A DNA stretch of 32,000 bases. Source: Planctopirus limnophila DSM 3776. GTDB taxonomy: Bacteria; Planctomycetota; Planctomycetia; Planctomycetales; Planctomycetaceae. Position numbers and translations under genes: made by a program. A model generated the notes under the pieces. The model saw only the letters and a list, made by a program, of their open reading frames with translations. It searched no databases and was not told the origin of the DNA. The stretch covers positions 600,001 through 632,000 of the forward strand of contig NC_014148.1 in the NCBI RefSeq assembly GCF_000092105.1, written 5' to 3'. Of the stretch, positions 11,548 to 32,000 are shown piece by piece. The number at the start of each line of letters is the position of its first letter. The stretch's first letter is position 1.

Positions 11548-11610
11548 TTGAAACTGGTACGTTTGAATCTGCTGTGGCAGTGATGTTTGTGTGGAAGGTA
11601 GGCTAGTTTC

Positions 11611-12153
11611 ATGGCACGGTTGATGGAACGGTATCGTTCTGAGATTCTTCCCTCTCTCAAGTCAGAGTTGGGTCGTGAGAACGAACTGTCGTTGCCAAAA
11701 TTAACCAAAGTCGTTGTCAGCATGGGCTTGGGTAAGGCCATTGGTGAACGAAAGCGACTGGAAGAGGCTGCTCAGCACCTGGCATCGATTACTGGGCAAA
11801 AGCCGTTGATCACGAAATCTCGGAAAGCTGTTTCAGGTTTCCGCCTTCGTGAAGGGATGGAAATTGGTTGTATGGTGACGTTGCGCGGTCGCCGGATGTA
11901 TGAGTTTCTTGACCGTTTGATTTCTCTGGCTCTCCCCAGAGTGCGTGACTTTCGTGGTGTGAATCCTAATGGATTCGATGGCCACGGAAATTACAGCATG
12001 GGTCTTACGGAACAGCTTGTGTTTCCTGAGGTCAATCCGGATAAGGTGAACTTCGTCCAGGGGATGAACATTACCATGGTCACCACCGCCCGTAATAATG
12101 ATGAAGGAAGGCTCCTGCTGAAAAAGCTGGGTATTCCTTTCCGTAAAGATTAG
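11611..12153 (+). CDS. rplE: 50S ribosomal protein L5
   Basis: 180 aa, LPKLTKVVVSMGLGKA...RDFRG....FDG.GNYSMGL.EQLVFPE. Confidence 0.95.
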   Translation: MARLMERYRSEILPSLKSELGRENELSLPKLTKVVVSMGLGKAIGERKRLEEAAQHLASITGQKPLITKSRKAVSGFRLREGMEIGCMVTLRGRRMYEFLDRLISLALPRVRDFRGVNPNGFDGHGNYSMGLTEQLVFPEVNPDKVNFVQGMNITMVTTARNNDEGRLLLKKLGIPFRKD

Positions 12154-25115: not shown

Positions 25116-26753
25116 TTACAGTTCGATCGCTTCCACTTCAGCCACGAATCGCTGGTTGTTGTCAGCGAGGAATGCACTGATCACGTTGAACACGGCGTCA
25201 CTGAAGCCACCGATGTTCATGATGTCAGTTCGCTCACAAGCCTGGACTGTCTGGTACGGCTGCAAGTCGATGTTAATCAACTTCGGTGGGGCAGCTTTTC
25301 GGCTCAGCTTTCGCTGGTTCGATGAAAAAGCTTCCCAGGCCGTCATCACACCGGTTGAACCGTGCCGTCCTGTTCCGACCCAACTCTCGTTATCGCTCAC
25401 GAGAACCATGCCGGCGAACTTTCGTCTCGCATACTTCTGGTTGGCAACAACCAGTGGCAGCGAACAATCCGTTCCGCCACCGCCGTACTTCGCCAATCGC
25501 TGAGCAATGCTCAGGATCGAATCGTTGGGATCGATCTTCACATCGTAAGCCGACGTATCGAACGGAATCACAACGCTGGCCGGGTTACGCCTGAGGATCG
25601 CTGCTGCGAACAGTGCTGCCACGTCGATGCAGCGCATCTTCGAAGTTGCACCTCGTCCACGGTTCCCAGTGACCGGGCTGCTCATTGATCCAGATGTATC
25701 CAGACCAATCACCACCGGTCCCGGCAACTCCGGTACGTTTCCACAGGCGATCTCGGCGGCCTTATGCAGTGCAGTCTTGATCTTCTGCGGAACGTTGTCG
25801 TCTGCGTTCAAGTACGCAGCAAAGTACTGGTACGGGAACTGCTTGGAGCGTTGAATCTCCGTCTTGTCAGCGATCCGGTCAGCCACGTAATCAACCATTG
25901 CACTTGTGGCGAGCACATCGTGTCGCAGCAAAGTGTTCAAGTTCATACGTAGTGCCTGCGGACCCATCTTGCGAGCCAGAACTGCCCAAACCTTCGGTCC
26001 CCTGGCGGCATCGGACAACAAGTCCCAGCGGACGATGTCGAGTCCACCAGCGATCAAGGCCTGCGCTTCTTCGCTTTCCGACTTGCGGTACGCGATCAGC
26101 GACTGAACTTCGACCGGCAGGTCGGCTTCCGTGGCGGGTGCCCACTTGTCGATGCTCTTATCGGTCAACCAACCGAACATCGCCCGGCGAGCGTTGTCCT
26201 TAGGTGTCGGTCGAGCCATACGCAGGATATCCCGCAAGCTCGGATCGTTACCGATAGACGCGCTCAACAGCTTTCCAACCGAGGCGGTGTTTAGCCAACG
26301 CTGGAAGGCTCGCTGCACAGAGCTCGACAAGCCAACGCGACTCTTACCGGCCTTGTTCTTGAACTGACCTGAGCGAATCATCTGGAACACAGTTCGCAGA
26401 ACGCGACCGTTGTCGACCACGCGATCGAAGACGCGATGCATCAACTCGGTATCACGAACTGACAGCGCGACCAGCAATGCAGCCGGCATGTCTTTCATGA
26501 ACGCTTTCTCACGAGCATAGAGAGCCAGCTTCGCCAGGTACTGGTTGTCGTCGACTGTGTCGATCAACTTGAGCACTTCGTCGAGCTGTGATTCTGCAGT
26601 ACTGTAGAACGCGTTGTTGAAGGTGCCGGTAGCAGCCACCTGGGCCAGCGCGTGTTTAGGTTCGAGTTGATATGCGAGGCCACCGGCTTCGTTGACGGCG
26701 TTGGCCTTCGGGAGTCGGCCAAGTATGCTTGCGAAAAGAGACATGTTTGCCAT
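25116..26753 (-). CDS. rsr: Ro 60-kDa autoantigen orthologue (Rsr): TROVE domain plus vWA domain
   Basis: 545 aa. The N-terminal text ([30 protein letters not shown]; [20 protein letters not shown]) is typical of bacterial Ro/TROVE proteins. The C-terminal vWA domain has the MIDAS motif [12 protein letters not shown]. Confidence 0.85.
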
Positions 26754-29772: not shown

Positions 29773-29917
29773 AACACCTGACGAGGTTGTGGCCAGAGTT
29801 ATTACCTCGACGGACGCAAAGCGACCTTCGAGGTTCCGGCCCATTGTTACATTAACGAGTGGACCGGGCGGGAATCGAACCTGCTAAACCATGTACTCCG
29901 AACCGGCAGTCAAGTGT
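29773..29917 (-). ncRNA. Structured RNA B: Y-RNA-like stem plus permuted tRNA-like domain (paralogue of RNA A)
   Basis: On the - strand the parts run in this order. Basal helix ACACUUGAC / GUCAGGUGU (9 bp, one G-U). Internal loop UGCCGGU / CCACAACCUC. Helix UCGGAGU / ACUCUGG. T-arm GCAGG-UUCGAUU-CCCGC. The acceptor 3' strand CCGGUCC pairs with GGGCCGG across an 18-nt closing loop. A long hairpin (CCUCGA...UCGAGG) replaces the D-arm. The RNA ends 20 nt before the EndoV start codon. Confidence 0.5.
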
Positions 29918-29918
29918 T

Positions 29919-30082
29919 GTTTCAAAACGATCGATGAAGAGATGTGTCAGAGGGTTTACGGCGCTCTACCACTGAGCTACGGCGCAATGAACTAAATCAA
30001 AGTTGCGCCAGTGGGATTCGAACCCACGACTTCCGGCTTATCAGGCTGTGCTCCAACTCGGCAGTCGATCGTTGTTTGAGAC
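29919..30082 (-). ncRNA. Structured RNA A: candidate YrlA-type Y RNA with a circularly permuted tRNA-like domain
   Basis: On the - strand the parts run in this order. Basal helix GUCUCAA-[AC bulge]-AACGAUCGA / UCGAUCGUU-UUGAAAC. Internal loop CUGCCGAG / CACAUCUCUUCA. Helix UUGGAG / CUCUGA. Anticodon-loop-like heptamer CUGAUAA. T-arm GUGGG-UUCGAAU-CCCAC. The acceptor 3' strand UGGCGCA is closed by a 17-nt loop onto the 5' strand UGCGCCG (7 bp). A fully canonical U8 A9 and D-arm GCUC-AGUGGUA-GAGC follow. Confidence 0.55.
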
Positions 30083-31490: not shown

Positions 31491-31565
31491 TGCCGGAGGC
31501 AGGAATCGAACCTGCGAGCTTCTGGTTCAGAGCCAGACGCAACGACCAACAGTTGCTACTCCGGT
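31491..31565 (-). tRNA. tRNA-Gln (anticodon CUG)
   Basis: Acceptor ACCGGAG/CTCCGGC (A1xC72 unpaired). D-arm GCAA...TTGC, anticodon arm TCTGG-CTCTGAA-CCAGA, T-arm GCAGG-TTCGATT-CCTGC. Confidence 0.7.
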
Positions 31566-31582
31566 AATTTGATATCTATCAA

Positions 31583-31654
31583 CCCGGGCGGAAGGAGTTG
31601 AACCTTCATACCACTGCTTCAAAGGCAGTTGGCTTACCATTAGCCGACATCCGA
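31583..31654 (-). tRNA. tRNA-Gln (anticodon UUG)
   Basis: D-arm GGCT-AATGGTA-AGCC, anticodon arm ACTGC-CTTTGAA-GCAGT, T-arm GAAGG-TTCAACT-CCTTC. The acceptor TCGGATG/CGCCCGG is weak (one AxC mismatch and two G-U pairs). Confidence 0.6.
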
Positions 31655-31672
31655 ACAACCTTCATCAAACAG

Positions 31673-31818
31673 AGTGCCATGTCGGAGTCGAACCGACCTG
31701 ACCGAATTGGAAGGTTTTTCACGTTGTTTCATGATCGACTTCGTTGGGGAATCAATCGTTGCACAACGTGTGACTTTCCGGCCACCTTTAAAAACCTTTG
31801 CCGCTCGGCCAATGGCAC
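31673..31818 (-). tRNA. 146-nt tRNA-like gene with a structured insertion of about 75 nt in the anticodon-arm position
   Basis: Perfect 7-bp acceptor GTGCCAT/ATGGCAC. Type-II-like 5' half TGGCCGAGCGGCAAAGG. T-arm GTCGG-TTCGACT-CCGAC. Between them lies a 9-bp helix AAGGTTTTT/AAAAACCTT enclosing an 8-bp helix CACGTTGT/ACAACGTG and a 6-bp helix GATTGA/TCGATC. No 7-nt anticodon loop is identifiable. Confidence 0.45.
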
Positions 31819-31829
31819 GGTGGGAGTTT

Positions 31830-31858
31830 GAAGTTCGAAGTTTCAAACTTCGAACTTC
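31830..31858. repeat. Uninterrupted copy of the palindrome that is split around the four-helix-bundle gene
   Basis: GAAGTTCGAAGTTT-C-AAACTTCGAACTTC has 14-nt arms identical to the outer 14 nt of the arms at 26772..26789 and 27187..27204. Confidence 0.85.
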
Positions 31859-31879
31859 TCAATTCACACTTCTGAAAGG

Positions 31880-31954
31880 CTCCGGCGGCAGGAATCGAAC
31901 CTGCGTCCAGGCGATTAACAGTCGCCTTCCCGTACCAGCACAGGACCCACCGGA
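31880..31954 (-). tRNA. tRNA-Asn (anticodon GUU)
   Basis: TCCGGTG GG TCCT-GTGCTGGTAC-GGGA A GGCGA CTGTTAA TCGCC TGGAC GCAGG TTCGATT CCTGC CGCCGGA G. It has the U1-A72 pair and G73 of tRNA-Asn. Position 8 is G. Confidence 0.7.
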
Positions 31955-32000
31955 GTAAGATCAGGTTTCAGACTTCAGGAGTCAGCTTTCAGGAGAAAAT

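Follow-up and report, generated by a model that had tools for sequence, protein, structure and literature searches.

What is a gene that starts and ends like a tRNA gene, is 146 nt long, and goes undetected both by ARAGORN in its default mode and by the Rfam tRNA model? It could be a tRNA with an intron, a tRNA-shaped RNA with some other role, or a dead gene; an initial annotation took it for a tRNA-like RNA whose anticodon loop has been replaced by an extended arm. The window analyzed here, 32,000 nt long (G000:C1:600001-632000), is from the complete 5.46-Mb genome of the planctomycete Planctopirus limnophila (G000; a chromosome of 5,423,075 bp and a 37,010-bp replicon). Its last 7 kb are an RNA-centered island on the minus strand, containing a tRNA array (more than 20 genes), a YrlA-like RNA, a second Y-like RNA, a homolog of EndoV, a tRNA-Trp gene, an ATP-dependent RNA ligase (domains PF09414 and PHA02142 OB), and Rsr, the Ro60 ortholog (25116-26753, minus strand; TROVE and Ro60 vWA domains, Pfam PF05731 at 3e-11 and PF25045 at 3e-15). 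The 146-nt element is part of the array (31673-31818, minus strand), with rsr 4.9 kb downstream on the same strand. Its placement in an Rsr/Y-RNA island, proposed at the outset, is borne out by the Pfam identification of Rsr and the Rfam identification of the YrlA-like RNA nearby.

The island is not confined to this genus. Rsr of P. limnophila shares 96% identity with its counterpart in Planctopirus hydrillae JC280, and many Pirellula/Pirellulaceae genomes (loci L006-L084) encode an Rsr 87-93% identical to that of Planctopirus (Planctomycetaceae). These homologs are accompanied by the same array and the same Y RNAs; the island is therefore horizontally mobile, and as a whole it has evidently been transferred across families. 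Array content is mosaic among islands, ranging from 6 to 31 tRNAs. Several members of the P. limnophila array are non-standard: tRNA-Asn(GUU), for example (31878-31954, minus strand), scores 29.7 bits on the Rfam tRNA model and fits the tRNA-Sec model better (35.7 bits, below threshold), owing to a 9-bp acceptor-like stem. The array spacers (31819-31877 and others) are hairpins or heptamer repeats, such as GAAGUUCGAAGUUU-GAAA-CUUCGAACUUC, and diverge quickly between species. Just past the end of the window, between tRNA-Gly(GCC) and tRNA-Asn, there is an ORF for a four-helix-bundle protein of the 23S-IVS type (G000:C1:632002-632358, plus strand). Its dS relative to P. hydrillae is 0, against 0.13-0.31 for neighboring genes, and it is therefore a tract recently exchanged or inserted within the array. 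A 688-aa zinc-ribbon gene downstream of rsr is outside the island; among the loci searched, it was found only in that of P. hydrillae (L079).

Positions within the element are given as RNA position i, corresponding to window coordinate 31819-i; all of its parts are on the minus strand. The perfect 7-bp acceptor stem originally noted is present: GUGCCAU (RNA 1-7; 31812-31818), which is identical in P. hydrillae, L009, and L018, pairs along its full length with AUGGCAC (31674-31680), and the 3′ strand ends in a discriminator U (31673-31680 together) with no encoded CCA. The D region (UGGCCGAGCGG), a canonical T arm, and the wide separation between them were likewise confirmed, the gap being about 96 nt. 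The D region had been called type-II-like, but it is the normal arm of the class I array tRNA-Gly(UCC) family: GCCG-AGCGGCAA-AGGU (RNA 10-25; 31794-31809) is unchanged from the intact tRNA, with RNA 1-25 100% identical to L018:4609-4633 and L009:238-262. The T arm is GUCGG-UUCGACU-CCGAC (RNA 122-138; 31681-31697). From one arm to the other, the order is AGGU, UUUUAAAGGUGG, CCGGA, a 63-nt insert, CUUCCAA, UUCGG, UCAG, T arm. By alignment to intact orthologs, UUUUAAAGGUGG (RNA 26-37; 31782-31793) is an extra linker replacing the single nucleotide 26; it repeats AAAGGU, and its U-run is able to pair with an A-run at the 3′ end of the insert. CCGGA (RNA 38-42; 31777-31781) is the 5′ strand of the anticodon stem and pairs with UUCGG (RNA 113-117; 31702-31706). 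The insert (RNA 43-105; 31714-31776), between tRNA positions 31 and 32, is a hairpin of 8 bp (31763-31770/31720-31727), a 5+5-nt internal loop, and a further 6-9 bp (31749-31757/31733-31742), and is absent from 35 intact family members. Directly after it is an intact anticodon loop, CUUCCAA (RNA 106-112; 31707-31713; anticodon UCC, Gly), identical to the loop of the intact orthologs. A normal anticodon loop, which could not at first be located, is therefore present, with stem strands directly before the insert and directly after the loop.

Compared with canonical decoding tRNAs (RF00005), then, the element has the 7-bp acceptor stem and discriminator, a T loop of the UUCGA type, and a D arm with GG, while 63 nt split stem nucleotide 31 from loop nucleotide 32 and there are 12 nt at nucleotide 26. 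At E ≤ 10, Rfam yields only chance-level T-loop matches over the element, and a promoter and terminator scan found neither.

Where such a gene came from is the best-answered part of the question. BLAST of the element against 79 Rsr loci gave split matches to adjoining pieces of one 72-nt gene; identity with the element is 100% over nt 1-25 and 97.6% over nt 106-146 in L018 and L009, and L031 is at 95%. ARAGORN calls all three tRNA-Gly(UCC). In these syntenic arrays, from Pirellula-type genomes, the intact gene occupies the same slot (Asn-[Ser CGA]-Gly UCC-Gln UUG) and has the 3′ flank CTCTGTTTGATGAA in common with the element. A covariance model of the element (self-score 189 bits; 187 bits for the P. 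hydrillae copy) found intact array-type tRNA-Gly(UCC) genes of 71-72 nt in 35 of 150 genomes of the family, and the anticodon stems of these intact members co-vary (CUGGA/UCCGG, CCAGG/CCUGG, CCGGG/CCCGG, CCAGC/GCUGG). The Planctopirus copy has 74 nt more: 11 at position 26, and the 63-nt hairpin before the intact loop. Judging by these alignments, it very probably derives, by insertion, from an ordinary array tRNA-Gly(UCC). The Infernal search suggested in the initial annotation thus recovered a P. hydrillae homolog and the intact tRNAs, but no covariation in the 146-nt form, since there are just two near-identical copies of it. The description of a tRNA-shaped gene with a structured anticodon-arm insertion of some 75 nt stands as well, with the correction that the loop has not been replaced: it and both stem strands are retained. 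A canonical housekeeping tRNA-Gly(UCC) is encoded elsewhere in the genome, so decoding of GGA and GGG does not depend on the element.

The 146-nt form was found only in P. limnophila and P. hydrillae (G001), whose copies are 95.2% identical. Two congeners lack it: G003 (L058; Rsr 98%), with an 83-nt spacer in its place, and G002 (Rsr 94%), which retains just six array tRNAs. Both of these keep rsr and the two Y-like RNAs. About half of the inspected arrays have nothing in the Gly(UCC) slot. Neither a repeat nor a mobile element, the insert has no second copy in its own genome, and BLAST in 41 relatives found nothing related beyond the P. hydrillae copy. A pattern search of 401 genomes of the phylum returned no relative; among metagenome contigs it gave 97 matches, all to unrelated coding or random sequence, and two scans of viral contigs gave chance matches only.

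Other array tRNAs have insertions of their own. The same tRNA-Gly(UCC) in another genus (G474; L207:1555-1654, corresponding to G474:C84:28554-28653) is 100 nt long, with a GNRA-capped hairpin of 28-30 nt (GGGCACCGAUUGGCCGAAAGGCCAGAUUGG) following CUUCC of the anticodon loop, in the slot Asn-Ser-X-Gln; no rsr was detected in this 94%-complete genome. It is independent of the Planctopirus variant. A tRNA-Val common to two species (L018:5185-5293 and L031:5185-5275) has its UAC loop replaced by a hairpin. The L018 copy has an additional 20-nt insertion relative to L031, and there is a compensatory T-stem change between the two. L018 also has a tRNA-Leu(CAA) with a 21-nt hairpin at the D/anticodon junction (L018:5732-5827), and its Val and Leu inserts share GCGACCA..CGUCGGUG..GCCCG.

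Could the gene decode as it stands? Both of its competing global folds predict that it is unable to. The minimum free energy (MFE) structure (-54.9 kcal/mol, z = -4.2, with none of 200 shuffles equally stable) includes all three helices originally named, AAGGUUUUU/AAAAACCUU, CACGUUGU/ACAACGUG, and GAUUGA/UCGAUC, and the insert folded alone gives -17.9 kcal/mol (z = -3.6). This MFE structure is a rod built on AAGGUUUUU/AAAAACCUU, which uses up a D-stem strand and three loop nucleotides. The other fold, constrained to a cloverleaf, keeps the D arm and anticodon stem, and pairing of A43-G45 with C106-U108 joins the hairpin to these in an arm of about 27 bp; it is 10 kcal/mol above the MFE in P. 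limnophila, and 2 kcal/mol above it in P. hydrillae. The two copies differ at seven positions (19, 21, 32, 39, 66, 105, and 114). As a rod, five of the seven substitutions disrupt pairs, and the 9-bp helix loses two pairs in P. hydrillae; as a cloverleaf, two disrupt a pair, one improves a pair, and four are in loops. On these predicted structures, the cloverleaf with an extended arm is the better fit to the substitutions.

The element is most likely either a non-decoding tRNA-shaped RNA or a young pseudogene, rather than a new class of RNA. The scheme that we tentatively prefer, without giving it an even chance, is that of a processed, unspliced, non-decoding tRNA mimic under some constraint. 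Its ancestor is the array-type tRNA-Gly(UCC) of a horizontally spread island of tRNA array, Y RNAs, EndoV, RNA ligase, and Rsr; in the P. limnophila/hydrillae lineage this gained 11 nt at the D/anticodon junction and the single-copy 63-nt hairpin between nucleotides 31 and 32. Because the "elbow" of acceptor, T, and D arms is untouched, RNase P and RNase Z could release the RNA from the array transcript, and CCA could be added, while it remains unspliced. Its anticodon arm would form an irregular rod, about 27 bp long and including pairs between C106-U108 of the loop and A43-G45; in the alternative fold, the 9-bp helix would sequester a strand of the D stem, and decoding would be blocked either way. 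It may then persist as a non-decoding mimic in an island devoted to RNA quality control and repair, possibly as a decoy or scaffold for tRNA-binding factors.

A young pseudogene is a rather less probable but still substantial alternative: a redundant array tRNA-Gly(UCC), inactivated by insertions (arising, for example, from hairpin-templated replication errors at the anticodon stem-loop) and now decaying with no function of its own, any transcript being a dead-end product. Between P. limnophila and P. hydrillae, array tRNAs are on average 94% identical and the element 95.2% (7 of 146 nt differ), with 4 of the 80 inserted nucleotides differing. Of the flanking spacers, the upstream one (59 nt) is 82% identical and the downstream one is too different to align, and dS of island and flanking genes is 0.13-0.31. 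The binomial probability of four or fewer differences in 80 nt is 0.017, 6e-4, or 2e-6 at neutral divergences of 0.13, 0.18, and 0.25, respectively. A divergence of 5%, set against 18% in the adjoining spacer and the dS of the island genes, hints at constraint on the element and speaks against a decaying gene. Since the tract adjoining the element has a dS of 0, however, part of this conservation could be due to recent exchange rather than selection.

None of the substitutions fall in the acceptor stem, T arm, or anticodon loop, which is not what is expected of a pseudogene; nor is an insert in the form of a well-made hairpin, as opposed to random sequence, or the survival of dead DNA in bacteria, where it is usually deleted quickly. 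Among the substitutions located in helices, on the other hand, all but one are disruptive and none is compensatory, and the P. hydrillae fold is weaker by 10 kcal/mol (z = -1.9). The stable P. limnophila fold counts toward a tRNA mimic, the weakened P. hydrillae one against it.

Distribution, too, favors a pseudogene: the element is sporadic and lineage-specific, has been lost in the closest relatives (G002 and G003/L058) and is dispensable, and belongs to a genus whose arrays are eroding, G002 being down to six tRNAs; the vacancy of the Gly(UCC) slot in about half of the arrays, and the G474 insertion-bearing gene without rsr, are further points against a mimic. Redundancy with the housekeeping tRNA-Gly(UCC) suits either a mimic freed from decoding or a dead gene. 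The G474, L018, and L031 cases can be seen as parallels to a tRNA mimic, or else as similar lesions unique to other arrays, with the extra insertion in L018 tRNA-Val relative to that in L031 looking like progressive accumulation. Pseudogenes have also been documented in long tRNA arrays (PMC8421152, PMC4758250).

If the RNA is a mimic, is Rsr its partner? Genes for bacterial Y RNAs lie no more than about 4 kb from rsr, share its strand, and are co-distributed with it (PMC4201824); in YrlA, tRNA bodies on long stems serve Rsr systems (PMC4201824; bioRxiv 10.1101/312249). The island's YrlA-like RNA (29926-30076, minus strand) has a closing helix ACGAUCGA(C)/(C)AUCGAUCGU, a handle CUGCCGAGUUGGAG, and a permuted tRNA-like domain, over which it scores 37.6 bits on RF02553, under the gathering score of 69; it is conserved in 13 other islands, and its closing helix shows a compensatory series from G-C through G-U to A-U. 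Directly after it comes the second Y-like RNA (29774-29923, minus strand; handle ACAAC-ACUUGAC-UGCCGGUUCGGAGUACA, closing helix ACACUUGAC/GUCAGGUGU), the two having in common a handle of the form ACAAC-helix-UGCCGRUUNGGAGUACA. In G002 this handle recurs in a third, small Y-like RNA (L208:~11572-11650), just upstream of rsr; Rfam contains neither the second nor the third as such. A module GACUGCCGNNUNGGAGUACA ... CUCUG..ACA..CUUCG is common to both Y-like RNAs and conserved across islands; given the resemblance to Ro-binding stems that contain CCGAG, it is a plausible binding site for Rsr. The pattern matches the two Y-like RNAs only and is absent from the element, so that any binding of Rsr by the latter would not be via the handle that these share. 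RF02553 has no match on 31550-32000 at up to E = 10; the hairpin loop does hold AACGAAG, a 6/7 match to GNCGAAN0-1G. Genomic co-occurrence is mixed: the element is upstream of rsr on the same strand, there is rsr without the element in G002 and G003/L058, and an insertion-bearing Gly gene without detectable rsr in G474. As partner of the mimic, Rsr accounts for only a small share of the total probability.

The initial annotation had further suggested that insert and YrlA-like RNA share a protein-binding helix grafted onto tRNA scaffolds in two topologies. The motifs it pointed to (AACGAUYGA, UCGAUC, and GAAACAAC) are indeed present in both, the full set of common words being CAACGAUYGA, (G)UCGAUC, and GAAACAAC, and the combined pattern occurs at just two places in the 5.46-Mb genome, the element and the Y-like RNA. 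A grafted helix does not follow: the likeness comes down to a palindromic helix of 6-9 bp and ACAAC. With a collapsed YrlA of another species as query, the insert was the fifth-best match in the genome (E = 0.74), and this is suggestive only through co-location, the query having been designed after the insert had been seen. Local alignments of insert and YrlA found exact words of 8-9 nt only (p = 0.12 and 0.017), and GAAACAAC, on the YrlA side, forms the variable junction with the second Y RNA. With a palindromic core, a variable junction, poor alignments, and a fifth-ranked match, the case for kinship of the two sequences is weak. A similarity to AAAGUCNCA upstream of YrlA was dropped, as it is not conserved in other islands.

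A third explanation, that the element is the precursor of a working tRNA-Gly(UCC), is improbable. In this case the 63-nt hairpin would be removed by some bacterial endonuclease and the halves rejoined by the island RNA ligase or RtcB, which would amount to a new, protein-dependent bacterial tRNA intron. Retention of the anticodon loop and both stem strands in two species, with a fully paired stem in P. limnophila, fits this, although in P. hydrillae the stem has an A.G mismatch. Removal of 28 nt flanked by GG repeats would leave the G474 variant at exactly 72 nt; removal of the Planctopirus hairpin would still leave position 26 with 12 nt, as against the single nucleotide of a tRNA. Enzymes for rejoining are at hand, in the ATP-dependent ligase of the island and two RtcB genes elsewhere in the genome, though neither activity is specific to splicing. 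The insertion is at the stem-loop junction (31/32), outside the loop. As had been anticipated, it is too short for a group I intron: the catalytic core of these takes up at least 200 nt (P3-P9) and sits within the anticodon loop, and Intron_gpI has no match at E ≤ 10. The expectation that there is no bulge-helix-bulge (BHB) intron held as well. Neither a BHB nor a relaxed BHB can be drawn at the junctions (42|43 and 105|106), there being only the 3-bp A43-G45/C106-U108 helix without 3-nt bulges, and EndA (PF01974) has no match in this 100% complete genome, with all four archaeal controls positive.

A feature of the DNA itself that happens to lie in a dead tRNA gene, be it the scar of a recombination event or a palindrome bound by a protein (CACGTTGT..ACAACGTG, with an inner TCGATC), is very improbable. 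The insert is a long quasi-palindrome, and genes for four-helix-bundle proteins have been inserted into palindromic spacers elsewhere in the island. This palindrome, however, is single-copy, with no other instance in the genome, related loci, or viral and metagenome scans, and there is no promoter-like or terminator-like site. The chance that the element is a tRNA(UUA) of the suppressor type with a long variable arm, an AAGGU/ACCUU anticodon stem, and a 71-nt intron at the canonical 37/38 site is negligible: ARAGORN -i returns this model, and the 9-bp helix underlying it is in the MFE fold, but the intact orthologs show AAGGU to be a D-stem strand and place CCUU within the Gly anticodon loop, P. 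hydrillae has lost two of the five stem pairs, and the D stem would have to be one of 3 bp closing a loop of 4 nt, so that this tRNA-Stop(UUA) was set aside as an artifact. Applied to the 79 Rsr loci, the intron mode of ARAGORN gave mostly chimeras of neighboring tRNAs and was unusable.

If the RNA is made and kept, the locus would capture a decoding tRNA in the course of becoming a tRNA mimic within an Rsr/Y-RNA island, with the ancestor visible in sister genomes; such an intermediate has so far been lacking in proposals that Y RNAs originated from tRNAs (bioRxiv 10.1101/312249). If it is a pseudogene, it is a record of the erosion of a redundant tRNA array. In practical terms it is an annotation trap, which the intron mode of ARAGORN turns into a false ochre-suppressor tRNA. 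Either way, it is far more ordinary than a tRNA whose anticodon loop has been replaced. A more ambitious reading, which must be considered unlikely, is that planctomycete array tRNAs have repeatedly given rise to tRNA-shaped adaptor RNAs through structured rods in the anticodon arm (Planctopirus Gly, G474 Gly, and the L018/L031 Val and Leu variants), with the Planctopirus RNA as an un-permuted counterpart of YrlA, a living intermediate between tRNA and Y RNA that binds Rsr or another island protein; or else that the inserts are the first protein-spliced tRNA introns in bacteria.

Among known RNAs, tmRNA is similar in that a long helix, in place of the anticodon arm, accompanies its acceptor stem and T arm, but the element has a full D arm and neither an mRNA-like part nor pseudoknots, and the tmRNA-like T-loop match is a chance-level one of 8 bits. 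With the BHB introns of archaea and eukaryotes and the group I introns of bacteria it shares an intact mature domain and additional sequence lengthening the anticodon arm and pairing with anticodon-loop nucleotides. It differs from the former in the lack of a BHB motif and of EndA in the genome, from the latter in an insert far below core size with no Rfam match, and from both in the 31/32 insertion site and the second insertion at position 26. The non-functional members of long tRNA arrays (L-arrays; PMC8421152, PMC4758250) offer a closer comparison, the element belonging to an array that is mobile and redundant, numbers more than 20 genes, and varies in membership between relatives, and encoding no CCA; its lesion differs in being a well-folded 63-nt hairpin with an 11-nt linker, maintained in two species at tRNA-like identity. 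To YrlA (Chen et al., 2014, PMC4201824; Wang et al., 2018, bioRxiv 10.1101/312249) it is comparable in its tRNA-like body with a long irregular helix for an anticodon stem, its position on the rsr strand in one island with two YrlA-type RNAs, and the palindromic helix ACGAUYGA/UCGAUC and ACAAC found also in the local YrlA. Unlike YrlA, which is permuted, it has normal tRNA topology with a closed arm and free ends that form an acceptor stem; it has no RF02553 match, island Y-RNA handle, or exact GNCGAAN0-1G; it is 4.9 kb from rsr, and missing in relatives that retain rsr; and its recent descent from a decoding tRNA can be demonstrated.
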